Assembly: GCA_977862235.1 (NCBI GenBank)
Contig: OZ374560.1
Location: forward strand, 2,108,001-2,172,000
DNA length: 64,000 nt
Origin: Dudresnaya verticillata
Lineage: Eukaryota
Direction of reading: 5' to 3'
A model generated the notes under the pieces. The model worked only from the letters and a program-made list of their open reading frames with translations. It made no database searches and was not told the origin of the DNA. Position numbers and translations under genes: made by a program. Of the stretch, positions 7,161 to 61,735 are shown in pieces; the stretch's first letter is position 1; each line of letters opens with the position of its first letter.

Positions 7161-7599
7161 AAGCGTGGGACTACAATGCTGCGCAGCGAAGGCTAGTCGT
7201 CGGGCTGGAGAGCGGAAAGGAGATACAAAAGCGACAATGGAGTTGAAAGGGTTGCTTTGGAAGCATCGCTCGCCACACTCAGGAAGAGCGGTGCGGCGGA
7301 GACGAACAGCGAGCCACGGTCGCAATATTTGGACGATAGTCCGTCACGGGGATGTTTGACATCTTTATAAGACGTAATGGTGGTATTCATATTCATGTTG
7401 CGACTCCGTGTTTAAGCCTAGGCCAGGGGCCCAAATTTTATTAATGCATGCACGCAGCAGGGCGGTCGCTGCAATGCGGAAGGATCCACAGATGCTTGCC
7501 AACAGCTAGCGACCGCCCCGTCCGCACTCCCCAGAACTGGTATTGACTCGCAATGCCGCGTAATTTCCGATTCTCCGCTTAGCCTTTCAGATGATAAAG

Positions 7600-11777: not shown

Positions 11778-12449
11778 GAGTCCTGGAATGTGTACGAATT
11801 GGTCATTCGGATGTTGACATCACGGTCGCCGACATTAGCGACACACAACAAGTCACCAACGGCAACAACTGGAGACTGGTTGCCGTTCCTAACCATTACA
11901 GATGATGGGCTTTGACTGATATTCTGGGTAATGAATTGCTCTGAGTTGTTCGTCATATGAGAGGAGCAACCGGAATCAATATACCATTCATATGGTGGCG
12001 AGTCAAGGACAGTAGTGTTAGCGGTTGCACATTTTGAGATGAACGTGATGCAATTTGACCCACTAGTAGCGGTGTCAGAACACAGATTTCCGGGTTTTCA
12101 GAATCTGTGTTCCGAATCAGTCTGAAAAATGTTAATGGAATGAATATTTCTATATCGCATTAGACTGGGGAGAGGGAGCTGAGAAGAATTGTTAAATCTG
12201 TTTTGGGATAGCATGCACGGTTGCGGAGTTACAGCATGCCGCATATACGGGTAAATGCCCCCGAAACTTTGGTGAAAGTTTCGAAACTTTCGGAATTTCC
12301 GAATTAAAATTTATCCAGAAATTGCACTGCCGCCTGCTGCCCTCCCGGGCGCGCCTGGCAGCGCACCGACGCTCGTGCTTCAGCACGCTTGGCCCCGCCC
12401 GCCGCATCCCCGGCCCGCCCTGAGCTGTGTTCAAGGGCGCAGTGTCTCC

Positions 12450-35295: not shown

Positions 35296-35660
35296 CTAAC
35301 CCATGTCGTGATGAAACAAAAACTAATAAAGACCATAATAATGGTTATTCTAAATGTCGCATAGCTGTAAGATCAGCTGTGCCACGCACGCGCAGCTGTA
35401 AAACCAGCTGCGCCACGTGTGCACCGCTGTGCCACGCTGTCAGCCGCTGGCGCCGAAGCCCCGCTGAACTGTAAGGAAGTGCGCAGTGGTGCCCGCGCGT
35501 GCACGTGTACGCGTGTGACACTGAAACTCTCGTGCAATTTCTACGTTTATTGTTGTGTCGTGTACAGCACCGTCTAGTGTAAGCGGCGATCGAACATCCT
35601 GCTGTCCCGCGAGCCGTGCGCACGCACTCCGGTGTAGAGCCGTTGAGTGAGTGACACGCG

Positions 35661-36403
35661 TGTGGTGTAGTGAAAACCCACGAACTCCGAGACGGACAGC
35701 TGGCCTGACTTTCCTGACGAGAGCAACACTACCTCCACGGGGTGGTAGAGCAGTTCGCACCGTAACGGGAGAACAGCTAGCTAACCGAGACGGATATTGG
35801 GAAGCAACAGACAAGGGGGTGGTACAAGTGCCGGGACAGACTCCGTAACGGTGGTGGTGGTAGACCGCAACGGGGTTTTAGGGGTTTAGGGTTTTAGGGG
35901 TTTGTGCCGGGACAGACTCCGTAACGGTGGTGGTGGTAGACCGCAACGGGCTCGGCGCGGGGAAAAACGTAAAGGATTGGGCTAAGGTTGCTTACCCGTT
36001 TACCTTAGGAGCCGCTGCGGTGCCGCCCTGATATACAAGTCAGGGTGGCACCGAGTGGTCCGGTCCGTGGGGGCCAGACCCTAGTGGTCTGGTCCTATGG
36101 TGGAATCGGCCCTGCTGGTCCCAATCTCCGACACGGACATGCGCAGCATTCTCATTGGCTGGCGCGCTACTCTACACACTGTACAGATACTCACTAAAAA
36201 TAAAGAATAAATACTACAAATACTCCGGTATGGTTGGTGCGCATCACTGCTGTACAGCAATGCGTACCGGCGTACAGCAATGCGCACAACATCCGACACG
36301 GTTACACGCTGCCAGATCATCAGCGTGGCGTATTGCCACATCATCCGTTACGATTGGCTCGCCGTCGGCGTGTCGCGTGCGCGCCACGGCTCACTTCACC
36401 ACA
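35661..36403 (-). repeat. Gypsy 3' LTR (743 bp, includes telomere-like insertion)
   Basis: TGTGGTG...CACCACA termini. PPT AAGGAGGGGGGTC adjacent on - (36404-36416). Confidence 0.95.
35875..35903 (+). repeat. Interstitial telomere-like repeat (TTTTAGGGG/TTTAGGG)
   Basis: GTTTTAGGGGTTTAGGGTTTTAGGGGTTT between two identical 47-bp copies (35828-35874, 35904-35950). Absent from the sister LTRs. Confidence 0.85.
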
Positions 36404-36535
36404 GACCCCCCTCCTTAAATGGCGCCACGTCCTCGGGCGCCCACCGTCACGGATTACCTTTGCTGCGACACCCACACACAATGATACGGTATCGTGCGCA
36501 ACTTTTCCTCCTCCTTCGTGCGCGCTTCTCCCCCC

Positions 36536-39384
36536 ATGGCAGGGGAGAAGGCTAAGCGCTCACCGTCGCCCTTTCAACCGACAAGGCGTTCCCGCGCTGC
36601 TTCCACAACTGGGGCGCAGGTCGTGCGAACCGTGACGGATGCTTCGACGCAAGCGCCGGCTTCTTCCTCAGCGGCAGCGACGCGACCCGCGACGGGCGGT
36701 CGTATGAGCATCGCCGTGACGGAACCTTCACCGGCTCCATCAGCGAGCCGAGGGTGGTCTGTCTATGATCCGAATCGGTTTGCTGCGAGCGCTGTCACAA
36801 GGCCCTTGCTACCAGGGAGTGCAGAGACTCACCGTGACGGAGAGGCGCCAACCAAGGAGCGCGATGATGCGTTCCGTCGTGGTGGCGAGGAGCTCAACTT
36901 GGCAGACCTACCGGCCATTCCGTTACGGACACCATCGACACCGGTATCGACGCCGAGTGGTAGGATGGCTTCCAGTCCTCATCCTTCCTCAAGTACACCG
37001 AGACGGATGCGTGGCCCCCCGCAAAGCAACCCACTTGCACCGGGGCCTTGGTGGCCGTTAGTGCATACCCGTGACGGAGAGGGCCCTGCCCCGAGTGGTT
37101 ATTGGCCGGGACACCATTTCCACCATCGCGCGGGGCGCCCGGCTAGAACCGATGCGGAAAGGGCTAAGATTAGGCCCCCGATGACGGTGGACCTCTTCAT
37201 TGAGAAGTATCCAACCGTCTTGGAAGCGAGAAGGTACAAGGCCGTCATGGCGCAACCCTTCAAGGCGAATCAACGCATTGGCGTTGTTCCGAATCGGAGA
37301 GAGTTTGTGTGGCAAAGCCGATGGGTGCATGGCTATTGTCAAGCGAGGACCTCTACCGTTTCGGATTTGTTGTGATATCGCTGCCATGGGGAGGTAGGAT
37401 ATACCGCCAAGGTGAGTCACCTGTTGGGCACAGGTTTCCGTCTTCGGGGTGCGCCGGTCGGAGTGCAATTCATTTGCTTCGACCGCCCCTATGACCAATC
37501 GGTATATTGGTTCCGCTATGCCGATGGGTGGAAGGACGATGCTGCGACGGAACACCGTTTGCGAACTCGTTCCCGTGACGGAATACAGGTTGGCTCGCCA
37601 ATCCTGCATACTTGGAACACTAAGGAGTTCTTCCATCTTCCGTATCGGGTACGTCGTGAGTTGTACCTTACAGCTCCGTCATGGTGGGCGCGTTATGAGG
37701 TGACCCGTTGGTTGTCTGTCCCCACGCCGTCCGTCGTAGCGTACTTCTCGGCGGACTTACTCACCGAACGGGAGTGGAACGACAAACATCCGAACGGAGA
37801 ACGTCCCCCGAATCAAGATCAGCTCGATGTACTGTGGCGCATCTTCCGATCGGAATGGGCCATGCTGGTGCTCTTCTCGTGGCTCCAGGTGGCCTATTAC
37901 GGAGTTCGGTATAACACCAAGTTAGCTCACTGGCGATGCTTCCCACGGGATGAGGATGACCTGCCGGGAGGAGACTGTGGCCGTATTTTTCAACTTCCCG
38001 TAACGGTGATCGCCCTGATTCGCGAAGTCGGCGTAGCCGATTTAGTGACGGGGTCGGCATACCCTCTCCATCGGGTTGAGCGTCTTTTATCCGTACACGG
38101 AGAACAAGATTGGCAACGCACTCCGGGCTTCTTGGGGTATAATTGGGACGAGGACCGTGTCCTATCGGTGCCCCCGTTGAGGCCCGGGGTGGGTGAGCCC
38201 TATTTCCTTCATCGAGAAGATCCGCGTCCGGAATGGTTGGCCTTAGAGGTGCAGGCCCATCGGGACTATGCCTCTCGCCAAGCACCAAGGGATGCGTACC
38301 GTGACGGTTTGGATGGGGCTGAAGATTGGGGAAGCTGTCATGGGACAGCGGGGCGTCCGCGTACAATCGACCCACGCGATTCCGTTACGGTGAGGCAGCA
38401 AGAGGCTGACCCCTTCGTGGAAGACCAGGAGGAGGTCATGCCCGTGGCCTCAATGGCAGCGGGTAGCGAGAAGACACCCTCTCCAATCCTTCCGGTGGCC
38501 GCGACACCCACGTCGCGCGAGGTGGCTCTTGAGACTACTACTCCCGTATCGGATAAGACCCCAACACCCATAGGCGTGGTTGCACCGACCAAGGCGGTGC
38601 CCAAGCTTGCGGCACCATCCAAGGAGGGAGTCTCAAAAGAGCAGACCGTTTCGGAAGTGGCGCCGGATACTGTACCAGTGGCACTGTCTCCTGCGACGCA
38701 AATGCCTGTCGCCGCGGAACCGCCCCTACCAAGTGCTCCGCTGTCGGCGCCCACTCCCACACCAGCGGTGAGTGAGGCACCGATCACCGTATCGGCAGTG
38801 GCTGCAAAGCGCCCAAGTGTTGGGGCAGCTGGAGACAAGCCCTCGGTTCTTGCGTCAAGTCATGAACCGTTACGGAAAAGCGATATCGCCTCGCCAGAGA
38901 AGGACACGGATCCACCGCTGCGGAAGGACGTACCTTCACCCGAGTCGGGACCATCCGTATTGGTGGTTTCCTCAACGGAGCATTCACTCGAAGCCGGGGT
39001 TAGGGATAAGCCGTCGATCTCCCCGAAGGTAGAGCTTCAAGAAGATGAGGATCCCCCGTTACGGTTCCGGCTCATCTAGCCGCTACGGAAAGTGGGTTAC
39101 AGGTGCTGCGAGGCATTTGCCGTACGCAGCGCTTCCCATTGCCAGGATCCGTTCAGGAAGCGCTAACCCTAGCGGAGGGGCTAATGGAACAGGTAATTCA
39201 GCTCCGCTCAGTGGACCGTCGTCAGCGTCGGCGCATGGATAGTACGATTCGCGTCTTGGGAGACAATACGCAGCGCGTATTCCAATCGGATCCGAGTGGG
39301 GAACCCGGCTTACGAACGGGTCGAGGGAGCAACGAGGAAGACACAGTGGCCCCTGCTCCGAAACGGCGTCGACGTAACTCTTAG
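36536..39384 (+). pseudogene. Large antisense accessory ORF of the Gypsy element (~950 codons; one TGA, one frameshift)
   Basis: ATG at 36536. Same frame through TGA 37373-37375 to ~39055, then a shift near the C-run into the 39103-39384 frame ending PAPKRRRRNS. W/Y/F-rich globular core about 37050-38250 and P/S/T/A-rich linker. Confidence 0.75.
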
Positions 39385-39484
39385 AGTTACAGCTCGACGA
39401 TCTCCTTAACGGTTTCCATTATGCCTCGATCTTAGCTTGCGATAAACGTTGTGTGTTATCACACCCCAACGTTCTAACTGTCCG

Positions 39485-42400
39485 TTACGGTGAGTGACGT
39501 GCTGGATTAGCACGTCGCCGTGGCTTACCCTTAGCGGATGTCTTTTTCTTTTGCTTCCAATATCGGTAGATGAAGTTCTGCGGTAACTCCTCCGCGGGCT
39601 CAAAAGTGTCCTGATACGGAGGGTAACCATACCAGCGGACTTTGTATGTCATCCCAGTAGGTTCGTCGCGGTGACCGACATTCTTGTCGATCACATATTC
39701 CGTATCGGCTTGCAGTGGTTCCGTCGCGGAGGGAGTAGTACCTTCAGAAGGAGGTACTACTGTAGTACCTCCTGGATGTGGCACTAATTCTCCGTAGACG
39801 GTTGATGGCGTGACAGGCGGCACTGTTAAGGGTGCCGGCTGAACCGCAACTCCGATCGGAACCTTCGTGATACGATCAATACTCACGGGGATCAATACCC
39901 CTTCCTTTCGGATTGTAACAACATGTTCCGTTGCGGATTCCACTTCGTAAGGCCCCGTGGCTCTCGGAAGGAGTTTCTTCATTTCCTGAGCCACCTCGCC
40001 TACATCATCCGGCTTGCCTTCCAATCGGTCCCGTTCACGGCGTTCGGCAGGCCGCAAGTTATGGGGCGGCCTGTCGACGTAGACTTGATCTCCGTTACGG
40101 ATTATGGGCCTAAAGCGCATCTTACGGTCAAACAGGGCCTTGGCTTTTTGCTGAGCCACTGTTTGCTTCGTGCGCGCTGTTTGGAGCGCATACCGTAAAC
40201 GGCGCATGGTACTCCGCTTATGTAGCACCGGGGTCATACGCCCTTCCGTAACGGTTTCTTGATGCTCGACAGGAGCCCCTCGTACAACAATGTCCGATGG
40301 GTGGCGTGTCAACACCAAATCAAATGGCGTTGTTTCCGTAACACGGTGCACCTGCATGTTGTACGCATACGTCAACGGTTGCAGGTACAGATCCCAATCG
40401 GAGTGATGATCCTCAACGTAATGGCGCAAATGCTGAGCGATTGTCTTATTAAATCGCTCAGCTTGCCCATTTGTCTGCGGATGGTAGGCGGCGGTGAGCA
40501 GGTGCCTGACTCCGAGTAAGGAACACACCGCGTCGAAGAACTTAGCAGTAAACTGCGGTCCGTTATCGGTTAGGACAAATTGGGGTGCACCATAGGCGTA
40601 CACCCAAAAGTCCAGAAAGGCATTAGCCACCACAACGGCTGTTGTTGTCCGTAACGGAATACAGCGCGTCAGCTTAGAGAACCAATCGGTAATTACCAAA
40701 ACGTAGACATAACCCCGTTTTGTCTTCGGAAGTGGCCCGAGAATGTCGATAGCGACAAACTCCAAAGGTCCGCTAGCGGGGAAGAGCTTCATAAATCTTT
40801 GATTCCGAAAGCGGGTTCCCTTTGTCTTCACGCAGGAGCGACATGTCCGAACGGATTCAAATACATCGTTGGCCATATGAGGCCAATAATAATCCTGTCG
40901 GAGTGTGTAATACATCTTAATTCCGCCTGGGTGACCCGACATCAGGGTGTAGTGGGATAAATACAATACCCGTCCACGGAGTTCGCTTGGCACCACCTTC
41001 TGTAGAGCGCCATCCAATTGGGACTTGCGTACCAAGAATCCGTTACGGTCATAGTCAAACTGTGATCCAGGGGAGCCTACCGTATCGGCTTTGGGACGGC
41101 AGAAAGGGTCTCTGGCTTGCGCTTCGAGAAACGCCTCCCTGGTAATTGTCTCATCCTTAACGTCGGATTCTTGGATTACAGTAAACCGTGACGGTATTGC
41201 GTCGGGCTTGTCAGGGGAGGCGGATGCGCTCCCACTGGCGGGCTCCACGGTGCATATTACGTTATTTTCCGTAGCGGTTTCTTGTGATGTAGCCCAATCG
41301 GTTAAATAAACTCCATGCTCATATAATCCGTCGACGGTATTTTCGGCGATAAAGCAGGGTATCTCTTCATCCAAAGGTCTATCGTCACCGCCATCCGTTC
41401 GGAGTCGCGACATTCCATCGGCGAGTTGATGCTTAATTCCAGGACGGTATTGCACCTCAAATTCAAATTCCGATAGGCGGAGCCTCCACCTGGCAAGGCG
41501 GCCAGATGAGTCTGCGAGGTTCAGGATCCACCGCAGGGCATCGTGATCCGTTCGGAGAATAAACTTGTCACCGTAAAGGTAGGGTCGGAGTGTTAACATG
41601 CTCCAGACCACGGCTAAGCATTCCTTTTCGGTTGTCGTATAATTTTTCTCCGCATCGGTGAGGCTTCGGCTCCAATATCCAATAGGGAGTTGATCGCCAT
41701 TCGGTTGTTCCTGCAGAAGGACACAGCCGACTTGGTGGTCACATGCGTCCGTGTCCAACGTATATTTATATCCGTGACGGGGTAGAGCCAATATAGGTGG
41801 AGAGATAAGGCGTCTCTTCAGTTCCTCGAAGGCTTCATATTCCGTATCGGATAATATTCCAAACTCAAAGGGTGAGCCCTTGCCGGTTTTTTTAGCGGAG
41901 CTGAAATCCGACCGAAGTTGGGTACAAAGCGACGATACACGTTGCACATTCCCAAGAAGGATCGCAATTCCGTTTGGTTTGTCGGCGGCTTCGCGACCTT
42001 GACGGATTGGATATTTCTATTATCCACTTCTAATTTTCCGGGACGGATAACATGCCCCAGGTATTGTACAGACGCGTTGAAGAAGTCACACTTTGACAAT
42101 TTCAACGTTACCCCAGCGGATCGTAAAAGCGTAAGGACTTCCTTCAGGTGGTGGAAATGTTCCGTAACGGTTTTTGAGTAGACAATTACATCGTCTAGGT
42201 AGACGAGGGCAAATTGCCATTTAACCGTAGAAAGGATTATATCCACTGCCCGTTGGAAGGTTGCCGGTGCATTTTTCAATCCGAATGGCATTCTCCGAAA
42301 ACGGTATAAGCCAAAGTGGCTAGTGAAGGTAGTTTTGTCCCTTTCCTCTTCCGGAATCTCGACTTGCCAATATCCGCTATTGCAATCCAGGGTGGTAAAT

Positions 42401-43753
42401 ACAGTAGCTTCCCCAAGGGAATCTATGCACTCATCCATCCTGGGCAAGGGATATGAGTCCCTAACCGTTACGGAATTGAGCCTTCTATAGTCAACACAGA
42501 ACCGCATGGTGCCGTCCTTTTTTGGAACGAAAACCACGGGGCTGGCCCACTCCGATGAGGCTGGTTCAATTACCTTAGCGGAAAGCATGCGATCGATCTC
42601 TGTCTTTTCGAGATCTCGCTGCTTATGTCCGGCACGGTATGGGGCTTGGTATACTGGCTTAGCTCCGGGAGTTAACTCGATGCGGTGCTTGGCAGCTGTA
42701 ATGTTGCCAAGATCGCCACTCCACATCGACTTATATTCCTCGAGTAGGGTTAAAATCCGTTTGCGGAACGATGCTTCTTCTGTGCCGATCTGGACTTGAT
42801 CCTTCCAGTCGGTAGTATTTTTATTTTCCGTTACGGGTTTGCTTACTTCCTTTTCGTGAGGGGAGATGCTGCTGGCCTTTTCGGAGGTAGGGTTAGAATC
42901 AAATGATTGAATAATTCCTCCCCCCTCCTTAAATGGAGGTATACCGTCAACGGTAAAAATAGCAGAGGGGGCAGCAGTAGCGAGGCCCACGACAGTAGAT
43001 TTGGGCAACCGTACCGGCTTGTTAGAAAAATTAGAGACCCAGATCCGAAACGGTTTGTTAGGTACAACATCCATAATACCATTAGCCATTAACGTAAGGT
43101 GCTTAAAAGCCGGCTTAGGATGATTTTGTAGAAAGCATAACCCACCCGTGGGGTATTAACCGTTACGGAGGTTTGAGTCATAGGGGGAATAAGGGTAGAT
43201 TTTGCAAACGAATTTTCTGAGAAACCGTAGCGGTAGAGAGAGGTGAGGGCTGTAGGGTTGCAGTGGTTCCCGTCTTCGGAATTTTGGCTTGACCAACAAG
43301 GGATACCGGTGGGTAATGATGAAAAACAACTTTCCGTAACGGAGGGAGTATTGCCTTCACGTAGCGGTCGATGAAGGTAGTTCCCAAAATACAGGGAGCC
43401 GCCAAGTTCGCGACCACTAGAAAATGGACGCGAGCACGGAGCTCTCCGATACGGACGAAAAGCTGGATCTGACCAAGAGGGCGTATAGCGCGATTAGACG
43501 CATCCCGTAATGGAGGACTGGATGCTGGGCGTATGAGTGGGAGCCATTGGCGCGGAAGGCGCCTGGCACTAATGAGATTGGGCCCAGCGCCAGAGTCCAA
43601 GACGGAGATTAAAGGAAGCATCACGCTATCTGTCCGTCTCACGGTAATTTGCATCTTGTAATTTTGATGTTGCATAAAGCAGATAGTATCATTGGTCTGA
43701 TAAGCCAATGGGAGTTCCGTAACGGTATCTCGCCGATCCCCTGGCGGGTCCAC
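39485..43753 (-). pseudogene. Gypsy pol: protease, RT, RNase H, integrase, chromodomain (frameshifted)
   Basis: LDSGAGPNLI; RFCVDYRRLN, LDCNSGYWQ, YLDDVIVYS; DTDACDHQVG, TTEKECLAV; GHPG..CRSC, TDNGPQF, HPQTNGQAERFN; chromodomain YVIDKNVGHR..YKVRWYGY..DTFEP. Confidence 0.95.
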
Positions 43754-43797
43754 ACTCGCGAGAGGTGGAACGCCGTGAGGCGGGGATGGCGGCGCCC

Positions 43798-46275
43798 TTA
43801 CGCATCCCCCCTTGAGTTTTCCGAATTCAAGGTTGCACCAGTCGGATCCGCCTCCATGGACTCGCGCAATTCTGCGAGTTCCACTCCGTCATGGTCCTCC
43901 ACCGATAGTATCGGGGCATTCCGTTGCGGAGGGGGCGTTTGCGGTCTGCCCCGATTCCCTTGCGGAGTCGAACTGGTTCCTACTACGAACCTGCGACCTA
44001 CAGGGTAGTGATTCTGGAAGTTGCGCTCGCGCTCTTCCATAAGCCTAACCCAATCGGCGTCATGTATCCATGGGCAAACAACGTGCTCTGGCGAAAGGCA
44101 GATGCGACAGTTACCACTTCCGTAAAGGCGTCGGACCCGAGGATCCGACTCATCCCGTAGCGGAGGTGCTTGTTGCTGCTGCCCTCGCCCATCGTGGGCA
44201 TTATTTCCGTAACGGTGACTCGGCTGCTGTTGGGGGCCAGGAGCTGGGCGAGATCCACCATAGGGGGGACCTTGCGCGCGTGGCAACCTGGGCGGAGTAG
44301 GGTGGACGCTTTGCGGGGGCGAGGAGTACGGGGTAGAAAAGGTAACCCCCGTGCTCGTTCCCGTAGCGGCACCCTGGCATCCCTCGATGGCTGGCACTTG
44401 ATTATCCGTAGCGGAAATATTCCCTTGCGGCTCATAGTATACATCCGATACGGAATCCAGCAACAACACCTTAGACGGGCGCGCTTTAGTGCGCCCATCA
44501 AAGACGTGAGCCGGAACGGTTTGGCGTCGAGCTGCCCGATGGGACTGACCCAGGCCAGTCGCATAGCGAGTGATGGCCTGATAATCCAACTGGGAATGCG
44601 TCGCTAGATAATTTCTCATCTGTTGACGAGTACCCGGTAGGAGTCCTTCAACGAACAGTGACTTCAATGCCCGATCGGAAAATACTGTACCGCAACGGAG
44701 AGCCTTGGCCCAGAGCTGGTTCGAGAACTGCTATTCCGTCATGGCGGACGTTTGCCTGAAGTTGCTGGCATCCGTATAGGCTTCCGCAATCACTTCATCC
44801 GTAGCGTAGGTTCTCAATAAAAAGTTCACCACCTCGGAATATGTGCGGAGCATCTCGGCCTGCTCCACGTCAACCGCCATGGTACCTCCAGCAAGCCTAG
44901 CCTGTAGAAGGGCTTCGGCCTGTCCTTTAAGGAAAAACTGGAAGCAACAGACGGCAACCCCTTCGGCGATGCCGTTGATGTTACAACCGTCACGGAACTT
45001 GGCGAGAAATCCCAAGACGGTAATAGGGTCCGTCCCATCGAATGTATGGGACGACATCTGGACGTCGAGTTTCTTCCGTATACGGCTCATGTTCTGTGAG
45101 AACTTAGAGCCGTATGTCTTACTCCTCTTATCCAATCGGTAGGTGCGGTAATCTAGCGCCTTGACAAACTTGTCATGTAGCGGCCGGATTACCTTCACCT
45201 TTCCGGATTTGGCACCGTGTTTTCTGGCCCGGTGCCTATTCTCTCTATCCGTTACGGAAGAACTCTCTGAGTCTGAATCCGTAGAGGTAGAGGAGTCATG
45301 CCCTTTTTCGCGTTTCCGCGATCTTCTGTTTCTCATCTTGCGGCGGCGGTGTTGGCTATCTGAGCTGCTCTCATTGGATTCCTTACCGGATTGGTGGCGT
45401 CGTCGCTGGGTGTGGTCGCCCATGTGCGACCGACGGGGAGGGTCAGAGCGGGAGTGTCGGGCATCTCGGTTATGCCGACCTCGACCGGTCCTCCGACTCG
45501 GATGGGGTGAGCTGGACGCATCGCTGAGATGGTCGCTGCCTCCACCTGATCGAACCGGAACGGTATAGCGCTCTTGCTGATAGCGCCCTGGCGTAGGCAT
45601 ATCTACGTGTCCAGGAGAATACCGTAACGGTGGCTGAGTGTGTGTTGGTCCCGTAGGGGCGTATTGACGTTGAGAATCCGTTACGGGAGCCGGTGGCAGT
45701 GGCCCAGAGGGTACTGTGCCCGGCGGTAATCCCATAACGGGGGGTTGTTGCGGCTGCTGCGTTCTTCCTTCGACCGGGAAGTCATTCCGTAACGGTGGTT
45801 GCTCAGTGAAAGCTTCCGTAGCGGGAGGCCTTGCCATGCCGGGAGCAATCTGGCTCTCGAGCTCGGCGGCCACCTTTTCCTGTAGGATCAAAGCTTGCAC
45901 TATCCGAGGAAGGTGCCGCTCCAGATAGGAATTAACCAAAGACGGAACAGTTTCCGAGAGGGATATCTCCACCTATTTTACCATTCCAGGTTGTACTTCC
46001 AATCGGAGATGCTCTAGCACCCTAGGAAGGACCTCCGACAGGACCCAGTGGACCCGATGGGATTCCGGCTTGGGTTGCGGAGCTGCCTTCTTGGAGGCGT
46101 CTGATCCGACACGGGAACGGGGAGCTTTACCAGCAGCACCCTTTAGGATGTCTTCTGGGTTCTCCACTCCGGAACGGATTTCACCTCCTTCACTGCGCAG
46201 ACTGCGCGCAGCGGGGGTAGTGTCACCCGCTTTAGGTTCCGTAACGGGAGGGTCTGCGTGTTCTTCGTTCTGCAT
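43798..46275 (-). pseudogene. Gypsy gag (two in-frame TAG stops)
   Basis: Three same-frame ORFs: FDGTDPITVLGFL, YSEVVNFLLRTYATDEVI, LKSLFVEGL, Zn-knuckle-like CRICLSPEHVVCP. Confidence 0.85.
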
Positions 46276-46402
46276 GATGCCTTAACGGAACAAAACGGTT
46301 GTTCTTGCTTGTCTATCCAATATTCCGTAACGGGTTGTCGGTACAGCCGAATTCCTACCGTAGCGGATTTCGACGGCTGTTTCTTCCAACCGTGACAGTG
46401 TT

Positions 46403-46418
46403 CTAGGTCGGGAGACCA
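46403..46418 (-). promoter_or_regulatory. Primer-binding site (possibly tRNA-Tyr)
   Basis: TGGTCTCCCGACCTAG lies 5 nt inside the 5' LTR boundary. It is complementary to a tRNA end ..CGGGAGACCA, as in eukaryotic tRNA-Tyr. The tRNA identity is inference. Confidence 0.7.
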
Positions 46419-46423
46419 AAAGA

Positions 46424-47098
46424 TGTGGTGTAGTGAAAACCCACGAACTCCGAGACGGACAGCTGGCCTGACTTTCCTTAACGGACGAGAGCAACACTAC
46501 CTCCACGGGGTGGTAGAGCAGTTCGCACCGTAACGGGAGAACAGCTAGCGGCTAACCGAGACGGATATTGGGAAGCAACAGACAAGGGGGTGGTACAAGT
46601 GCCGGGACGTACTCCGTAACGGTGGTGGTGGTAGACCGCAACGGGCTCGGCGCGGGGAAAACCGTAAAGGATTGGGCTAAGGTTGCTTACCCGTTTACCT
46701 TAGGAGCCGCTGCGGTGCCGCCCTGATATACAAGTCAGGGTGGCACCGAGTGGTCCGGTCCGTGGGGGCCAGACCCTAGTGGTCTGGTCCTATGGTGGAA
46801 TCGGCCCTGCTGGTCCCAATCTCCGACACGGACATGCGCAGCATTCTCATTGGCTGGCGCGCTACTCTACACACTGTACAGATACTCACTAAAAATAAAG
46901 AATAAATACTACAAATACTCCGGTATGGTTGGTGCGCTTCACTGCTGTACAGCAATGCGTACCGGCGTACAGCAATGCGCACAACATCCGACACGGTTAC
47001 ACGTTGCCAGATCATCAGCGTGGCGTATTGCCACATCATCCGTTACGGTTGGCTCGCCGTCGGCGTGTCGCGTGCGCGCCACGGCTCACTTCACCACA
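46424..47098 (-). repeat. Gypsy 5' LTR (675 bp)
   Basis: TGTGGTG...CACCACA termini. Colinear with the 3' LTR apart from small indels and the 76-bp insertion. Confidence 0.95.
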
Positions 47099-47705
47099 AC
47101 GCGCGCGCGTACTCCGGCGTGGAGCCGTTGAGTACATGTGGACCGTTTCGCCCACGCGCGCCCCCGGGTTACCTAACCCGTACGCTTCGACGCGTGTCGC
47201 GGCGCGCCGGTGCACCTCCCTAGTTGGTGCCGCCACAGGAACTGTATTATATTTAGTAGTCGCCCCTCTGGGCTTGAGTAAACGATCAGGCTTCAGAGCC
47301 GTTGATCTGCGACCGTCGACGGCGCGCGCGGCCGCAACCACCGCTCTACCACCACCGCTACCACCCTTCGACGGGCCTGGGTGCGACTACGAGACCAGCC
47401 GCGCTAGACGCCAGTTCGACCTGACGTTTATACCACACTAAACAAATAAAAGATAGCCTTGACAGTCAATGTAGAGGCAGATAAAGGGCGGGAGGGATAG
47501 GAAGAAAGGATAGACTTGCTGCTTCGTAGGGAGAGCGACAGGCGATAGCCTTGTGTACTGTAACCACCATGTCGAGGGAGACCCAGAGTTGCACTTTGCA
47601 TATTCTGTTCCCGTTGTCAGTGGCAACATTGGATCTGGTACCCTGGGCGAGACTCCATCTTTTAGCATCCTTCTGATTCTGTTCGCGATGGATGAACCAC
47701 ATTTG

Positions 47706-48381
47706 TGTGGTGTAGTGAAAACTCACGAACTCAGTAACGGACAGCTGGCCCAACTTTCCTACACGGGACGAGAGCGACACTACCTCCACGGGGTGGTAGA
47801 GCAGTTCGCACCGAGACGGAAGAACGGCGAGCGGCTAACCGAACCGGATATTGGGAAGCAGCAGACAAGGAGGTGGTACAAGTGCCGGGACGTACTCCGT
47901 AACGGTGGTGGTGGTAGACCGCAACGGGCTCGGCGCGGGGAAGATCGGAAAGGAAACAGCTACTGTGGGAAAGAGGCTCAAGGGTTGCTTACCCGTTTAC
48001 CTTAGGAGCCGCTGCGGTGCCGCCCTGATATACAAGTCAGGGTGGCACCGAGCGGTCCGGTCCGTGGGGGCCAGACCCTAGTGGTCTGGACCCATGGTGG
48101 AATTGGCCCTGCTGGTCCCAATCTCCGACACGGACATGTGCAGCATTCTCATTGGCTGGCGCGCTACTCTACACACTGTACAGATACTCACTAAAAATAA
48201 AGAATAAATACTACAAATACTCCGCTACGGTAGGTGCGCCTTACTGCTGTACAATAATGTACGCCAGCACACAACAATGCACCCAAGACCGACACGGGTA
48301 CACGTGCACACATCCCACAACGGTTTAGGCCACACTATATGCATTTCCACCGGTTTGGATGCCGAATCGCACTTCACCACA
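47706..48381. repeat. Solo LTR related to the Gypsy LTRs (676 bp), TSD ATTTG
   Basis: TGTGGTGTAGTGAAAAC...CTTCACCACA. ATTTG at 47701-47705 and 48382-48386. The centre is nearly identical to 46424-47098, the ends are more diverged. Confidence 0.92.
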
Positions 48382-49049: not shown

Positions 49050-52000
49050 CTCAACATTGTGGTCTTTGTTCCTTCGAGTCTTTCTCTCCGTCTTCCTCAC
49101 GCCCCTGCACACACCAATCCCTCTCCTCCTTCGTCCTGTCCTATTCGACTCCCCTTGCCGACATGCCGGGCGGCTTGGCCCCTGCCCCCGCCCTGGTCGA
49201 GCAAAAATTCGTGAAGTTTGCTCATGCGTCAATCGACTTTATTGCTGCTACCGTAGCGGACCTTGAACCTGTCGTCGACCTCAACAACCCCACCTCCGTG
49301 TCCGCGTTTCTCTCCCATCTCTCAACCTCTTCAACTGTAACCGCCTTACGTCCAATGTTCGCTTCCGAAACGCCATTCGGCGCCATGCTTCGCATCTTCA
49401 ACCAGATATCGCTACCGTACGACACCGCTCCGGGTCGTTCGTACCTCAAAGCTGTTAAATCATCAAATGCTCCTGTCGCGCGCCTCCCTACTCGCTCAAC
49501 TGGCAAATAACCTCCGCTCGATCCAGCCACAACGCACATTACCGCCGAGTTGGCAGCTTCGTTACGACGTACGTCCCGCAGTCTATGTGGCTACTCCCCG
49601 CATCGCTTTGTTCGCGTTGTTTCATCTACAGCTTTCGCAAACCCAGCCCATTTTCGCAATGCCCTGCAGATTGGTGGCTTCCCTGGCCCTGTCGCTGTAA
49701 TTCCTACTACGGACGCCACGCAACCCTACGTTTGCGCCCCGGAGGTAACGATTCAGCACACCAACACCGCCTATGCTACCTTCCGGTCCTTCGCGCAGGT
49801 CCCCAATTCTACTCCCCCCAACATCACGGTTTCATCTGTTCTGTCTGATATCGCTGCCCCGCTCCGCTCCGCTGGCGCTGTTCGTCAAGTCCTTGCTCCA
49901 CTTCGAGCAGAGATACATCGTCTTGAAGGAGCTGACTGTCGATGGGGTCCCAGACGTTTCTTTGCTGCCGCCCTGCGGAAGGCAGACAAGGATCTGTACG
50001 CCCGTCTCCATCATCTCAATCCATCTCATTCTGAACAGCCAATCACACCGCCCGTAACCGCAACGCCATCCTCCACTGGCAAACGCCCGGCCCCAGCTCA
50101 ACTGCCCACTGCCGCTGCACCTCGTCCCATGCCCTTGAGCGCTCGACCTTCTACCCGTTACATGATTGGTGCCCGCCCTGTTTCAGGCCCTCAGAACTCC
50201 TCTCCGACAGCTCCCCTCCCCTCTTCACCTGGGACCCCCACTACACCCCCTACTGCAGCCCCCAATTCACCCCCCTTGACGCCCCCACTGCCTCCACTGC
50301 ACCCCCCACAGCCCACCCCACTATTACAGCTGCTCCACCCTCGGAATCTCCCCCCTGTCCTACTTTGCCTTGCACGTCTGGTCCTCCTGGCGTATCGGCA
50401 AACCGATTTGCCTTGCTTCCCGAACAGGATTGCGCTGATACCATTATGTCAACCTGATACGCTCTCGCCCTCTCGACTCGGAGTTTACGGTCACTCACAG
50501 CTCAGAAATCGCCCTTCCCACCGCCCTCCATCTTGACACTCCTGCACCACTCTCTTCAACGTCTCGTCCCACTGTTGGCCCTTGCCCTCCACTTCATGTT
50601 CTGATGACTACCCCTATTCGTACTGTTGACTATATCCCGAATGCAATGCGATCGGAATTCTGTGAACTCTTCACTACTTGCATACACGAATTTTTACGAG
50701 CCGTTACCCCTGAACAACAGCGCCTATCCTTCACTCGGCTACTTGCCATCCCCAAGACTGTTCTCCGTCGAATGGGGTCTGGGGAACCACGGAATCGCAA
50801 CCGCCGTACATTTCAAGCTGTTTTACGTCGCCGAATACATCGTGCTTTAATTGGTGACTGGAACGCGCTCTTCCACGAAGCCTGTGACTCGCAGGACGCT
50901 GAACGCTCTTCTCTGTCCCGTCGTCGATCCTCACATTTCCGCGGATGTCGCCGCTCCATGCAGCAGGGTTCTGTTGCCAAAGCGGCGCGCTGCCTCATGT
51001 CAGATTCCGATGCCGTCACTCCCACTCCCGAGACGCACGACGCCTTAAATCTCCTGCACCCCCGCCCATCGACGCCTGTGAGTGCCCGGGACGCTTCAAC
51101 GCTACCTTCCTCTGCCCCGTTCTCTACTTCCGATGTTCGGTTGGCCATCAAATTGCTATCCAACTCGTCCAGTCCCGGCCCTGATGGACTGCGGGCCAGT
51201 ATGCTCAAGGCTCTGCTGCATGGGAATGGGGGCACCGATCCCTCTCGCGATCCTCTACAGCTATTGACACAGCTCGTGAATTGCGCCGTGAATGGCGGGC
51301 TTCCCCAATCCGTCCAACCCTGGTTCTGCTCCAGCAATCTTGTGGCATTCCCAAAAGCTGCACACCGCCCCACCGACCTCCGTCCTATTGCTGTTGGTCT
51401 CCTTCTGGCCCGTCTCTTCAGTAGACTCCTTGCTCGGCGCGCATCTGATTCTCTTGGCTCTTACTTCCGCCAGTTGCAGTACGCAGTTGGCACGACCGGT
51501 GGCTGTGAAATCATTGGCCATTCCGCTCGCACCTGGTTCCAGGAAGCGCCTGAAGCGAACTTGGCTTTGCTTCAGATTGACGCTTCAAATGCTTTTAACA
51601 GCCTGGAACGTCAGTGTATCCTGGATGAAGTTTCCACTCAAGCTCCTGACCTCTCCCGGTGGGTACATTTCGCCTATGGCACACCCTCTCCGCTCATATT
51701 TGGTCCCTTCACACTTCTCAGCCGTACCGGGACTCGTCAAGGGGACCCTCTCGGAATGCTTCTCTTTTGCCTGGGCATCCACCCTCTACTCCAGCGCCTC
51801 TCTCCTTCCCCTGATATATACATGCTTGCTGCCTATGCGGATGATCTCAACATAATCACCACTCGCTCGTCAGCACCAGGGCTTCTTTCCTCCATTCAAT
51901 CAGATGGACGCACAATTGGCTTCAATGTCAACATGGCCAAGACGTGGGCGTCATGGCCTTCTCTTACCTCGCCAATCCAAGACCTACCGTGCCCTGTTCG

Positions 52001-53460
52001 TCCCGCTACTTCCGCAAAAGTCGTTGGGGTGCCCCTGGGATGTCTAGCGCTTGACATTGCATTTCTAAAGCTCGAATCTACGCATGAATTGCTTCGTGGT
52101 CGATTCACTACACTATGTGATCCCCAAATATCATTTCACATTATCCGTGTTTGTTATGGCGTTAGTAAGCTATCGTTTCTCCTTCGTACTGTGCCGCCGC
52201 ACTTAACCCGCGCTGAAGTCGACGAGTTCGACCGGAGGCAGCGAGGCATGTATGAAGAGACACACCGTCCCCTGACCGACTCCGCCTGGTGCCTCGCTAC
52301 GCTTCCTGTTCGTTTTGGGGGTCTTGGAATAACCTCTGCGTCTGATATTGCCCATGCTGCTTATGCGGGCTCGCTGCTTCAAGTCCGCTCAGCGGTTCGC
52401 CTCCTCACCAACAGAATCGGACAATTTGCTTCTGCTTGCATCTCCCCGATCGATAGAGCCATCACAGAAGCACTGCTTCCTCTACAAAACCTTTCTCTTC
52501 TCCCCTTGCCTCTCACCCCGGAAGCTCTATTAAGGAAAGCTACTCAACGCAATGGTTCGGTTCCTGGCATTCAAATGTCCATTACGGATAGTATTATGGC
52601 TGCCCGTGCAGCTGTACTCCGCTCTCCATCGCTTTCCTCGCATTCTTCAACAGTACAAAAATCGTACATGGCTCGTCTACTGTCCTGCAGTACGGCTGCA
52701 GCTAGTGCGCCATTTACTGCCCTCCCGAATACCTATCGCGGTACTCGCTTCACCCCGGAGGAATGGATTACCGCGTGTGATATCCGCTTGGGCAACCCGG
52801 TTTTCACCGGCACCACTCGTTGTCCCCACTGTGTACTCACGCGGGGCGTGACGCAAGCTCCCCTACTTGATCCTCTCGGGAAACATGCCATCATCTGCGC
52901 TAGGCGCGAAGGTGCTATCCGGCGTCATAACACGTTACGCGATGTTCTAGCCAACGAATTCCGCCAGCTGGGCCTACGCCCTATCTATGTCGAATACTCA
53001 TTTCTCGCCGAACGTCATCTACCCCCTACTTCTCGTCGCCGTATGGACGTGGTGGTTCCTATATCTGCCTTTAACCCCCGCCCTCAGGCATTTGACGTTA
53101 CGGTGGCAGCCCCGTTTGCTGCCAATTACTGCACTGCCGCCTCTCGCTTGGGTGGGGCAGCGGCGACGCTCGCTGAAAGGCCCAAAAGAGCGCATTACCA
53201 AGATCTACTCGACAGCGAGGGAATGGATTTCTATGCTGTCGGTATTGACTCCTACGGCGCTATTGGCACTGAGGCTCGTCAGGCGTTACGTGCCATTGGC
53301 CGCTTTACGTCCGAACGGAGAGGGAGTAACCCTTCGGACGAAACGCAAGCACTCACGAATCGCATTGTATCTCATCTTCTCCGCTTTCAGGCGCTGGCGA
53401 TCAATCGCCGTCGTCTTGCCCTTCAGGTAGGTCCTTGCGTAGACGGGGCGACTTAGCGCC
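49050..53460 (+). mobile_element. CRE-like non-LTR retrotransposon (RT + REL endonuclease), near full length
   Basis: Upstream Pro-rich ORF pieces 49163-50536 followed by the 950-aa RT-REL ORF. 5' end approximate. No poly(A) tail or TSD recognised. Confidence 0.85.
50604..53456 (+). CDS. Reverse transcriptase + Zn-knuckle + restriction-enzyme-like endonuclease
   Basis: SPGPDGLR, LRPIAVG, IDASNAFNSL, GTRQGDPLG, AYADDL, LPVRFGGLG, CPHC..HAIIC, RRHNTLRD, RMD, FDVTV. Confidence 0.92.
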   Translation: MTTPIRTVDYIPNAMRSEFCELFTTCIHEFLRAVTPEQQRLSFTRLLAIPKTVLRRMGSGEPRNRNRRTFQAVLRRRIHRALIGDWNALFHEACDSQDAERSSLSRRRSSHFRGCRRSMQQGSVAKAARCLMSDSDAVTPTPETHDALNLLHPRPSTPVSARDASTLPSSAPFSTSDVRLAIKLLSNSSSPGPDGLRASMLKALLHGNGGTDPSRDPLQLLTQLVNCAVNGGLPQSVQPWFCSSNLVAFPKAAHRPTDLRPIAVGLLLARLFSRLLARRASDSLGSYFRQLQYAVGTTGGCEIIGHSARTWFQEAPEANLALLQIDASNAFNSLERQCILDEVSTQAPDLSRWVHFAYGTPSPLIFGPFTLLSRTGTRQGDPLGMLLFCLGIHPLLQRLSPSPDIYMLAAYADDLNIITTRSSAPGLLSSIQSDGRTIGFNVNMAKTWASWPSLTSPIQDLPCPVRPATSAKVVGVPLGCLALDIAFLKLESTHELLRGRFTTLCDPQISFHIIRVCYGVSKLSFLLRTVPPHLTRAEVDEFDRRQRGMYEETHRPLTDSAWCLATLPVRFGGLGITSASDIAHAAYAGSLLQVRSAVRLLTNRIGQFASACISPIDRAITEALLPLQNLSLLPLPLTPEALLRKATQRNGSVPGIQMSITDSIMAARAAVLRSPSLSSHSSTVQKSYMARLLSCSTAAASAPFTALPNTYRGTRFTPEEWITACDIRLGNPVFTGTTRCPHCVLTRGVTQAPLLDPLGKHAIICARREGAIRRHNTLRDVLANEFRQLGLRPIYVEYSFLAERHLPPTSRRRMDVVVPISAFNPRPQAFDVTVAAPFAANYCTAASRLGGAAATLAERPKRAHYQDLLDSEGMDFYAVGIDSYGAIGTEARQALRAIGRFTSERRGSNPSDETQALTNRIVSHLLRFQALAINRRRLALQVGPCVDGAT

Positions 53461-55958
53461 CTTCCAATCCTACCATAAAGGTCCCCATCTCTCTTTACTG
53501 TATCGGAAATAGCACGAAGAGACGTGGCACTTGGTTGCAGGCATTGTAGTAAGCTTCCAGTCCCCTTGCCCGGGTTGACGTGCATCACTTGTGCTAGCAG
53601 ATTCATGATCAGTTTGTATGCTTTATTCTTTTTACCACGGTAATATAGACAATATTCCGTCTTACGCCAACGAAACTGGAGCTCACGGCCCTCAAGCTCT
53701 GTGCGTGGACGTACAATTATAGGTTTTGGCGCATCCCATTATTGGCAACTTTCTTGGGTTGGACTTGTTATAGATCTATCAAGGTGCTTGTCGAAAGTCC
53801 AAGCCAAAAACAGGTCGCGGAGAGCAAGTTGGACTGCCAACTAGGCGGATGTAGTGGAAGAAGATATCAAGGTGTACTAGGGCTGTAGCTACGCGGCTAG
53901 GACCACTTTACACAAACAGGGATGTCAAACATCATCAATCCTGGGTGGCAATGTGTTGCCGGCATCGATACGGCGCAGCGTCGCGCTCTTCTGTGCATTA
54001 TCGAAGAATGGTGGTAGCACCGTAGTCTAATGTTGAGATATACTGTAGTTGTCTTGGATACCCCGAGGCTTAGTGGGTGTCTCTAGGACTGGTCTTTTAT
54101 ACCACCAGTATGTAAAAGTTGCGAACTATCGGAGACAACAACCGCTAGCAGTGTCTAACTTACTCAAAACTACGTATCGAAGCAATGGAAGGAAACGGAC
54201 GCAGGCACTGAATTAGTTTTCATCCCTCAGAATCAGCAATAGCTGGAAAGCATGTAAGCTGCGGAGCGTAATCTGTTGCAAGAGTCAAACATCTTCTCGA
54301 GGTTCAATTTGAATGCGCACGTATACCACAATAGTAGAACGTTTCTTGCATTGACACTCATTCCGTAAGGGAAGATTCGAATACCTCGGAAAGCTGGTTC
54401 AGGCTCGGAGCGGACACTGGGATGGGATGACCGCTGGGACAGAAGCGAGACTTTACTCAGCAGAGCGATGGGGGCTACTGTGAAGGTCGGCGCAGACTCC
54501 GGCCGACACCGAAGCCACGTTACCGCAGCAGCAGAAGCAGGCCGGGTGAGTGGGACATACCGCGCAGCGCCCGTTCCCACCGGCGCTTGCGGTAACCTTT
54601 CTCTCCACTGAACATCACGCCCTGGGAAGCGCGCCGCTCCGCCCAGCAGTTCGGCGTATGGTAGATAGCATGGTGACTGCTTCAACCGTGACTGGCTGGG
54701 CGCGGTGCGGCATGACTGTCAACAACAATGACTGCGGACTGTGGCAGGGAGCAATGTGAATGTCACAAAGCGCGGCGGCCGCGGCAGCCGCAGCGGCGCA
54801 GCAGCGCGTGGTTGCTCGTCGAGTGCCGTGTCTGCTGACGTGGAGTAACCCAATTGGCATCGAAGCCGGCGAGCTGCCGCAGAGCGCCCGCCGTGTCTTC
54901 CGCGCGCCTTACATCGGCGCGGGGGCCGCTCTGTCAAGATACCGCCTTGTGTTCTCTTCCGCTTCCACTGCTGCCATTTATGCGCCGGCCGCTTCGATGT
55001 GCCTCCGCCCTCTACCCGCATTCACGCCCCGCTACCGGGCGGAGCGGTCCGGGCATCCTTCCCGCCAAAGTCCAGCACAGAGCGGCTAGCGCGCGTAGCG
55101 GATGCCTCTTGCGCGACAACGGCACAGCGCCGCCGTGTGCCGCCGCCAAACTCAGACCTGTCAAAACATGAACATGACTGCCGACTGCTGCAGAAAAAAT
55201 CTAAAGGGATGCTTGCAGAAAAAAGGCGCACGCTGGCCACAACGCACCAGCTGCACCAAACTCGACAGCCATGTCAGCAAAACCGCCGCCCGCGGTGCTT
55301 GCATTCACCGGACGCCGTTGGTCCAACGAGAAAGACGCGTCCTTCGACTGACATCTCACCGTTCACCAGGCAGACCGCAACGAAGCTCGCTGTCGCCATA
55401 TCTCCGATCACTCACAAGCAACCGCCACTGTCAACAAACCCGCAGTATTGCCATATCTGCATATCCTGTTGGTGACTATGCCCTTCTGCTTCGGTCCACA
55501 ACCAACCAAACATGCCGCCGCGTCCAACCTGCACATGCGCGCGAAAGAATGCCTCCTATCTCGCGAGTGACCGCGTACTTTTCGCATCTCCCGAAACAGT
55601 CCAGGCTCAAGTTTGAAAGCAATCGCGAAGAATGTCAGTTGCTCTGCTGCGCGTGCAGCCATGCTATGGTCTACTCGCTCCCCCTGGCGAGTTCTGTTCG
55701 TGCAGAACCCAGTCCCGCAGTGACGAACGGACCACCTGCTACGCGCATGAACACCTACATGTCTGCCAGGCGGCCTTATTGTTCGACTGCATACACACAC
55801 GCAGCAGACAAGCTCACTGTCCACAACCGCCACTGAAGCTGCAGCGTCAGCGCGTATGGCTGTAGCGTTTGCACGCTGCAACGGTTGCCGCCGGCTGAGA
55901 ACCGGGTCGAATGAGGTCAGGCGAACCGAGAGTGCCGTTCGCTGCTATCGCTATCGCG

Positions 55959-55966
55959 TATAAAAG
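55959..55966 (+). promoter_or_regulatory. TATA box
   Basis: TATAAAAG about 150 bp upstream of ATG 56115. The same octamer precedes the paralogue. Confidence 0.65.
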
Positions 55967-56114
55967 ACACACGGCCACACCGCATCACGCTTTCTGCATG
56001 TCCGCAAACCAACCGCCTTCTCAACCCTCACTACTCGCACAGTGCCAATTCAGTGCTCGCTTGCACCTGTCATCCCAAACGCCCGCCCTCCCAACCCCTT
56101 GCTATCCCATCATC

Positions 56115-56708
56115 ATGACTCTCCGTAGCCACCTCCGCACGCCCCTCACACCCTCCGTCCTGCTCGTCCTAATCCTGACCCTCCTGCATTCCTCCTCACA
56201 AACCTCCGCAACAGCCCTCTCAGGCGCAGCCCGCTCTGGCACCACGCCGGCCCTGCTGCCAGAGTGCGCGAACTGCTCGACCAACGAAGAGTGTGCGCAG
56301 GGCAAGTGCTGGGGCAAACCGAAGCTGTGCACATCCGGTACACAGGTCTCGCTCAACAAGTGCTTCAAGCTCGAGTGCGCGCGCTGCCGCAAGTCGACCG
56401 AGTGCGCCAGCAAGAAGTGCTGGAAGAAGAAATGCGTCTTCAACAATGCCGCGTCCATGTCCAAATGCTTCCCCGACCTCGTCTTCAAGAAGCGTGTGTG
56501 CGAACCGTGTGAAGATGCCGATGAGTGTCTCGACGGCAAATGCTGGGCTCGCAAGTGTACCGATGGCACCTTTGATAGCCTGCGCAAGTGCTTCAGACCC
56601 GAGTGCTTTCCGTGCAAGAAGGGCACGGAGTGTGCTACGAAGAAATGCTGGGCCGGCAAATGTGTGTTTGACGGGGCGGAGAGCAGGAAGAGGTGCTTCC
56701 CTGAGTAA
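56115..56708 (+). CDS. Secreted Cys/Lys-rich repeat protein (197 aa, four 6-Cys modules)
   Basis: Hydrophobic signal (SVLLVLILTLL), then modules EC-x2-C-x5-C-x3-KC..C..CF. Confidence 0.85.
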   Translation: MTLRSHLRTPLTPSVLLVLILTLLHSSSQTSATALSGAARSGTTPALLPECANCSTNEECAQGKCWGKPKLCTSGTQVSLNKCFKLECARCRKSTECASKKCWKKKCVFNNAASMSKCFPDLVFKKRVCEPCEDADECLDGKCWARKCTDGTFDSLRKCFRPECFPCKKGTECATKKCWAGKCVFDGAESRKRCFPE

Positions 56709-61646: not shown

Positions 61647-61735
61647 AGCAGCTGCCCTGTCTTTACTGCTGAACTCATATCAGCTCGTCCAAAACAGTAC
61701 GCACTCCGCCCAGTCAAGTTGGGTACCACCTCAAC

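Follow-up and report, generated by a model that had tools for sequence, protein, structure and literature searches.

Why would a retrotransposon repeat one short palindrome throughout its length, in its long terminal repeats (LTRs) as well as in the genes that it encodes? This question is raised by a full-length Ty3/Gypsy element in Dudresnaya verticillata, lying in a stretch of 64,000 bases (contig OZ374560.1 of assembly GCA_977862235.1, positions 2,108,001 to 2,172,000; hereafter the window, whose coordinates are used throughout). The window contains 41 copies of CCGTNACGG, where shuffled windows gave a mean of 1.06 and at most 5 (100 shuffles); 39 copies lie inside the element (35661-47098), and the other two are found at 7341 and at 47897, the latter in a solo LTR. 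Within the element, the 39 copies compare with 0.35 expected (maximum 3 in 300 dinucleotide shuffles). A first-pass annotation, made by a model from the letters alone, had listed these 39 sites, expected far fewer than one and noticed others only at 7341 and in the solo LTR, and all of this proved exact. Its near-matches were also placed correctly, except for two that were off by one (44155 and not 44156, 46358 and not 46357).

The spacing of about one site per 300 bp given at that stage holds for the nine-mer CCGTNACGG but under-calls the pattern, the nine-mers being the best members of a wider unit, the dyad (W)CCG-N3-CGG(W). Results showed 92 copies of CCG-N3-CGG in the element against 6.44 expected from dinucleotide shuffles (maximum 14), which is about one per 120 bases. 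When one LTR only is counted, 83 dyads are found in the 10,762 bases of the element versus 14 in the remaining 51,261 bases of the window. Density ranges from 4.5 to 14 per kb across all parts of the element, whereas the flanks, taken over 10 kb, have 0.3-0.5 per kb; among the other transposon remnants of the window, Copia has no dyad and two long interspersed nuclear elements (LINEs) have one each (4001, 3001 and 4001 bases). These motif-negative controls are a Copia-like integrase remnant (10281-11819, minus strand), an apparently intact LINE-like reverse transcriptase (RT) open reading frame (ORF) at 50439-53456 (plus strand) and a second LINE-like remnant (24431-25732, minus strand). Apart from a 76-bp duplication in one LTR, no tandem array in the element holds the sites.

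Most of the sites are written over coding sequence, as 29 of the 39 nine-mers lie inside ORFs. Synonymous-codon shuffles of eight ORF segments gave an expectation of 1.56 for these 29 nine-mers (maximum 6 in 5000) and of 10.3 for the 67 dyads in the same segments (maximum 22). The nine-mer is used at 29 of the 35 places where the peptide permits it, in all three frames. Moreover, the peptides themselves are skewed: the pol, antisense and gag proteins of the window contain 31 motif-compatible peptides versus 6.8 by residue shuffles, an excess of about 4.6-fold; the corresponding numbers are 65 versus 85.6 expected in 119 related RT proteins and 91 versus 71.5 in 53 related antisense proteins. 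Sites fall mostly at tolerant protein positions, often with residues that are rare among relatives. Protein sequence does not account for the sites, a claim of the first-pass annotation that withstood the codon-preserving shuffles; rather, the sites shape the proteins, including reverse transcriptase and integrase. Among 121 RT proteins, a TVTE-type peptide at one RT site is shared by 10 of the 11 relatives with at least 70% identity and by 1 of the 110 below that identity, and the peptide xVTV at another site by 7 of 11 and 5 of 110, suggesting that the motif predates this copy.

An origin by chance, base composition, codon usage or assembly artefact could be invoked considering that the element has 50-59% G+C and favours CCG codons. 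However, the observed counts exceed those of dinucleotide and synonymous-codon shuffles 19- to 110-fold, which refutes chance, and an artefact is opposed by the different flanks of every site and by the coherence of the LTRs and target duplications; we attach next to no probability to this explanation. The idea of a dispersed, element-confined code that looks selected is thus borne out by the codon-shuffle excess, the peptide skew and the confinement to the element.

The dyad has a strict grammar. With spacers of 0 to 6 bases, CCG-Nx-CGG is found 2, 3, 9, 83, 18, 4 and 1 times, and the opposite orientation, CGG-N-CCG, has no spacer peak in the element. At least one full CCGT half is kept in 75 of the 83 dyads, and the flanks are A/T-rich (0.81, 0.68 and 0.61 at the first three positions versus 0.45). 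The two halves vary independently, the inner pair being complementary in 42 of 83 dyads (40.9 expected) and the outer in 25 of 83 (30.3 expected); compensated stem variants are absent among the window dyads (0-2 per cell at three arm positions), so that exchanging an arm pair for a different Watson-Crick pair is not tolerated. Centres are strand-symmetric, with TAA 14 times and TTA 12 times, and with TGA/TCA, TAG/CTA and TAT/ATA also common. In addition, sites are spaced more evenly than random (coefficient of variation 0.61 versus 0.93 for the nine-mer, p 0.003; p 0.014 for the dyad). Comparing the solo LTR with the element LTR, differences affect 2 of 54 arm positions, 7 of 27 spacer positions and 41 of 492 other columns, the spacer excess being significant (p 0.008). 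Independent halves with a fixed spacer are the look of a dimer site in duplex DNA, and the dimer-type site proposed at first reading agrees with what was found. Considering together the confinement to the element, the equality of strands, the even spacing and the lack of compensated stems, the dyad appears to be read as sequence, likely in duplex DNA.

The Myb-type recognition core that had been proposed for the same palindrome did not stand. The Myb/MSA core is AACGG; TAACGG is present in only 26 of 36 nine-mers and 57 of the 83 dyads have centres other than TAA/TTA, so that a Myb monomer core covers only 26 of 83 dyads. Two further observations concern the form of the sites. In window 35661-46422, CCAATCGG/CCGATTGG occurs 9 times versus 0.6 expected, possibly as a shortened variant of the dyad. 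Three neighbouring dyads (35683-35800 compared with 47728-47850) each differ at two adjacent spacer bases (AGA/TAA, TAA/AGA and AGA/AAC) in a stretch that is otherwise well conserved.

We also looked at 159 related loci, gathered with an RT alignment and scanned over up to 6.9 kb around the RT. None of them is saturated with the nine-mer in that span, where at most 2 per locus were found, and several related clades carry a symmetric signature of their own that is confined to the element, in agreement with the prediction that related families would have different motifs. For example, locus L006 has CCGA-N-TCGG 9 times, and CTC-N6-GAG reaches 23 versus 2.9 under codon shuffling in L081 and 18 versus 2.2 in L082. 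These last two loci, at 73% identity, share 10 of their 15 and 17 CTC-N6-GAG sites, versus a background of 16%. Within a single sequence bin (G001), one clade has 25, 25, 20 and 12 CTC-N6-GAG sites and another has 3 each. The bin (L081-L085 and L087-L091) is labelled bacterial and has at least 10 high-coverage Gypsy contigs, evidently eukaryotic contamination. A quick tree left the window element unplaced within the group of relatives.

In most cases, the signatures of the relatives consist of short inverted repeats with perfect arms, whose sequence varies and whose spacer is fixed per clade. When L081 and L082 are pooled, the bases next to CTC and GAG on the inner side are complementary in 32 of 50 cases versus 12.9, with no base preference, and the symmetry ends sharply beyond the outer C-G pair (11 of 50 versus 13.5). 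At the clade-specific gap, perfect arms of 4 bp exceed expectation by a factor of 2 to 3, in pooled counts that include shared ancestry: 547 versus 263 at gap 3 (9 loci), 339 versus 124 and 729 versus 235 at gap 4 (4 and 10 loci), 306 versus 133 at gap 5 (6 loci) and 227 versus 115 at gap 7 (5 loci). In a control group of 7 loci they are below expectation (156 versus 185). The excess of inverted repeats is 2.4- to 3.7-fold inside the elements versus 1.0- to 1.25-fold in the flanks, in the 4 loci with flanks. Clades with such repeats include L001 (316-10929), L006 (1-10184), L045, L052, L057, L081-L083, L028 and L091, with spacers of 3, 4, about 5-9 and about 7-16.

These repeats give some weight to an alternative, that the dyads act as mini-hairpins, each with a stem of 3 bp, a T-N-A loop and A/T flanks. 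Gag, RT, integrase or the antisense protein would read them in extruded DNA or in a single-stranded nucleic acid, as dispersed signals for packaging or replication. The relatives are indeed enriched in perfect 4-6-bp stems with clade-specific loops, L045 having 88 distinct arms among 130 sites, and in the window 46 of the 83 sites have arms that pair with a probability above 0.5 when folded with DNA parameters. With RNA parameters, pairing above 0.5 is seen at only 12 of 82 sites, the window dyads have no compensated stems, and in the relatives G-T wobble is not favoured over A-C (L006 excepted) and loop profiles are strand-symmetric, unlike an RNA signal. We regard this alternative as improbable. 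The specific class of RNA packaging-signal hairpins, which have covarying stems, tolerate G-U and carry a strand-specific loop, was rejected: the window shows no covariation and has symmetric centres, and the relatives covary mostly without a G-T preference.

The pattern could also be a mutational by-product with no reader at all, if family-specific template switching by the RT of the element perfected short inverted repeats, as has been proposed in bacteria (PMC5941160). Template switching explains the Watson-Crick-only, sequence-variable and element-confined repeats of the relatives. However, it cannot yield one fixed sequence with independent halves, an amino-acid skew and even spacing. Spacer inversions, moreover, were absent from repeats with identical arms and at least two spacer changes in five clades (0/34, 0/10, 0/19, 0/13 and 0/44, or 0/120), and the sharp stop of symmetry in L081 and L082 speaks against it as well. 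This origin ranks below the hairpins, as a rather remote explanation. Template-switch-perfected repeats were set aside as a class, with the arms fixed in the window and no inversion among the 120 eligible repeats.

If the sites are read by a protein, the best candidate reader, as judged from sequence, is the product of the ORF that the element carries antisense to its other genes. The stretch 36404-39079 holds 24 dyads. The conserved domain of the antisense protein has about 340 residues (about 37100-38200) and is split by an in-frame TGA at 37373-37375, across which it continues in comparison with homologues; a frame change follows near 39050-39080. The protein family is real, with 103 representatives and with a member in Gracilariopsis, and in many related loci its ORF lies antisense, downstream of pol. 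AlphaFold2 modelled the conserved domain with a predicted local distance difference test (pLDDT) of 87.3 and a predicted template modelling (pTM) score of 0.85, and the model of a full-length homologue adds a helical C-terminal part. Many homologues, and likewise the last piece in the window, have K/R-rich C-terminal tails, which we take to be nuclear signals. The family has no Pfam, NCBIfam or structural match. A PMD or VANC-type Pfam match was found in none of 102 family members at E 0.05, and fold searches of the domain gave no VANC/MAIN match, the presence of the VANC structure in the searched library being unconfirmed.

The specificity for one family inside one host argues for a reader encoded by the element. 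Alternatively, a co-opted host protein could read the selected duplex-DNA sites and keep the family in open chromatin; such a protein might be a Zn2Cys6 factor or another dimer with CCG/CGG triplets as its target, or it might recognise pairs of CpGs that lie five bases apart. Fungal zinc-cluster dimers use everted CCG-Nx-CGG flanked by A/T, and the dyad fits this grammar, though only the grammar, in its CCG-Nx-CGG form, its independent halves and its fixed spacer. An excess of isolated WCCGT half-sites was seen too (159 versus 38 scaled from the rest of the window), and each dyad has two CpGs. Zn-clus factors are reported in a red alga, Galdieria (PMC4827209), and DNA methylation has been reported in Gracilariales (PMC9861306). 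Pfam found no Zn2Cys6 protein among the ORFs of the element. Against a host reader, the study that reports the Galdieria factors found no fungal-type factor in Porphyridium, host DNA and the other transposons of the window are without the motif, and the signatures differ between clades inside one bin, so that a different host factor per clade would be needed. A host reader thus seems unlikely to us, about as much as the hairpins.

We therefore favour, with a probability of roughly 0.45, the reading that the dyads are under selection as sites in duplex DNA where a dimeric protein docks. This would most likely be the antisense protein from an intact copy, which would coat the element and likely keep it active. 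According to this proposal, about 90 evenly spaced (W)CCG-N3-CGG(W) palindromes, with CCGTNACGG as their best form, would have been written through the LTRs and genes by the choice of codons and amino acids, and selection would keep them as the places where a homodimeric reader of double-stranded DNA docks. This reader, putatively the element's own antisense-ORF protein supplied in trans by an intact copy, would occupy the element about once every 120 bases and mark the whole of it as 'self', and the coated element would likely stay transcribable; anti-silencing, activation and chromatin targeting are the candidate outcomes. Selection over mutation bias, reading of duplex DNA and a dimeric reader are each likely, and strand symmetry with even spacing argues for DNA and chromatin over RNA.

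Several points weigh against this proposal. The sharing of RT peptides by 11 close relatives, a comparison at the protein level, could be explained by common ancestry alone, and the arms are not significantly conserved with respect to the solo LTR (p 0.30). Structure searches matched the antisense domain to no known DNA-binding fold, and the ORF is broken in this copy, so that the reader must come from another one. Moreover, the clades around L002 and L021 have the antisense family but no symmetric signature, which weakens a simple one-to-one link between antisense protein and signature. The arm covariation of the relatives points to a reader of structure more than of sequence and is a poor fit to a plain dimer site, which does not explain their sequence-variable repeats.

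Considering that the related clades share a symmetric logic with other spacers and often variable arms, what an ancestral reader recognises may be symmetry or the shape of a hairpin, and the lineage in the window would be the sequence-fixed extreme. A broader and more tentative proposal, which we hold rather doubtful and below the docking-site reading, is that a red-algal chromodomain Gypsy clade writes a lineage-specific symmetric code along its full length, which is read by an antisense protein that these elements encode themselves and whose fold is undescribed; the majority of lineages would use symmetry itself, as perfect 4-6-bp inverted repeats of any sequence with a clade-fixed spacer, and this one would have fixed CCGTNACGG, with a force that remodels its own proteins, giving a VANC-independent self-recognition able to switch between reading DNA shape and sequence. 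The locus bears on two questions, namely how retrotransposons recognise their own copies and which role antisense ORFs play in Gypsy elements, and it brings together in one element a candidate reader and a sharply defined candidate site, with a second code strong enough to bend the sequences of reverse transcriptase and integrase. If the reader is encoded by the element, the family would represent new chromatin targeting proteins in algae that look programmable.

Short words overwritten on coding sequence through synonymous or conservative changes are familiar from HIP1, DNA uptake sequences and the packaging signals of RNA viruses. Those are genome-wide in bacteria or strand-specific RNA hairpins, whereas here the word is strand-symmetric and belongs to one eukaryotic transposon family. 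The first-pass annotation had likened the element to Arabidopsis VANDAL transposons and their VANC proteins. VANC21 is directed by the density of a family-specific motif (PMC5735166) and is predicted to dimerise via a coiled coil (PMC13547354), and the two systems have in common a short motif that is dense in one family, rare in others and different between related families, together with an accessory protein encoded by the element. This part of the analogy stands; the rest is loose, since VANC motifs are mainly non-coding, non-palindromic, in one orientation and multiplied by tandem repeats (PMC5735166), while here they are palindromic, mostly coding, dispersed singly outside tandem arrays and paid for in codons and residues. 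VANDAL is, in addition, a Mutator-like DNA transposon and not an LTR retrotransposon. The system is VANC-like in its logic, and it is not VANC.

An extra antisense ORF between pol and the 3' LTR is also found in the Retand, Grande and RIRE2 elements. Retand antisense proteins are predicted to bind DNA, that of Grande is reported to be nuclear, matches to Smc-like coiled coils are frequent, and the role of Gypsy antisense ORFs is called unknown (PMC11963269). However, Retand is non-chromoviral and has Transposase_28 (PF04195), whereas our element has a chromodomain and no PF04195 match, and the accessible part of that paper mentions tandem arrays for these elements, not a dispersed element-wide motif. 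The element is thus a member of neither the VANC nor the Retand systems. Sireviruses likewise are LTR retrotransposons whose palindromes are family-specific and linked to host silencing (PMC4728375); theirs are long hairpins confined to a part of the LTR, unlike the 9-11-base sites that cross coding regions here. Centromeric dyads have arms under 10 bp and show the contrast between sequence-variable and sequence-specific lineages that recurs here, but they reside in satellite DNA (PMC5889037). By analogy, the nearest precedents for the pattern of the relatives are these dyads and template-switch perfection (PMC5941160). In the literature searched, at title and abstract level and mostly outside subscription papers, we found no description of CCGTNACGG as a motif or of these elements, nor of Watson-Crick-only, element-confined inverted repeats with clade-specific spacers in sister clades.

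The element itself, whose parts are listed in the table, is identified as a chromodomain Ty3/Gypsy retrotransposon by its TG...CA LTRs, target duplication, polypurine tract, gene order (gag, protease, RT, RNase H, integrase) and chromodomain at the integrase end. Pfam matched RVT_1, RT_RNaseH, Integrase_H2C2, rve and Chromo, and direct reading of the sequence gave a 5-bp target duplication, ACGCG, at 35656-35660 and 47099-47103. The two LTRs differ by only six substitutions and a few indels, and the insertion is therefore young. This copy has three in-frame stops and four frame changes, some of which may be assembly errors. Gag carries 19 dyads within 43889-46281. The protease region matches gag-asp_proteas at E 0.009, below the cut-off, and has similarity in 74 records of the local database, the window itself included. 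From its position, the 3' LTR is likely the promoter side of the antisense ORF too. Named relatives are red-algal, namely an RT of Agarophyton chilense and, for the antisense ORF, proteins of Gracilariopsis chorda; judged from them, a red seaweed would be the probable host.

Table. Parts of the Gypsy element and the neighbouring solo LTR (window coordinates; dyad, CCG-N3-CGG).
Feature	Coordinates	Strand	Remarks
Full-length chromodomain Ty3/Gypsy LTR retrotransposon	35661..47098	-	sequence reading and Pfam; 39 CCGTNACGG, 92 dyads
5' LTR	46424..47098	-	TG...CA termini; 9 dyads, 13.3 per kb
Primer-binding-site-like stretch	46400..46423	-	TGGT after a short spacer
Gag region	43798..46281	-	homology to related loci; in-frame TAG at 45973-45975 and 44731-44733
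Protease region	43178..43888	-	frame differs from both gag and RT
Reverse transcriptase	41818..43155	-	3 nine-mers, 2 where close relatives share a motif-compatible peptide
RNase H, integrase and chromodomain	39485..42016	-	frame differs from RT; 6 nine-mers
Antisense ORF	36536..39384	+	disordered N-terminus, conserved domain, low-complexity linker, helical tail ending PKRRRR
Polypurine tract	36404..36420	-	abuts 3' LTR; direct sequence reading
3' LTR	35661..36403	-	10 dyads; 76-bp internal duplication with telomere-like junction
Solo LTR, same family	47706..48381	-	identity of about 89%; 8 dyads, 7 common with element LTR; separate 5-bp target duplication (ATTTG)

The 76-bp duplication in the 3' LTR (35828-35950) copies two dyads. 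Its junction (35872-35903) is a run of GGGGTTTTA/TTTAGGG-like units that is absent from the 5' LTR and from the solo LTR, and which we presume to resemble telomere repeats. The primer-binding-site-like stretch does not match the tRNA-Lys of the window, a tRNA-Lys(CTT) gene at 760-832 on the minus strand, which is not the primer of the Gypsy element.

Elsewhere in the window, 18238-20740 (plus strand) contains two overlapping ORFs and no dyads. The second ORF has a weak resemblance to adenine DNA methyltransferase models, with a best E of 0.0065 that falls far short of the cut-off, and the first has motifs that by eye we take to be ParB-like and methyltransferase-like. Finally, 55899-56708 and 61673-63415 (plus strand) encode two cysteine-rich proteins that are related to each other and whose starts resemble signal peptides; in the second, a 222-bp repeat is present in 4.3 copies.

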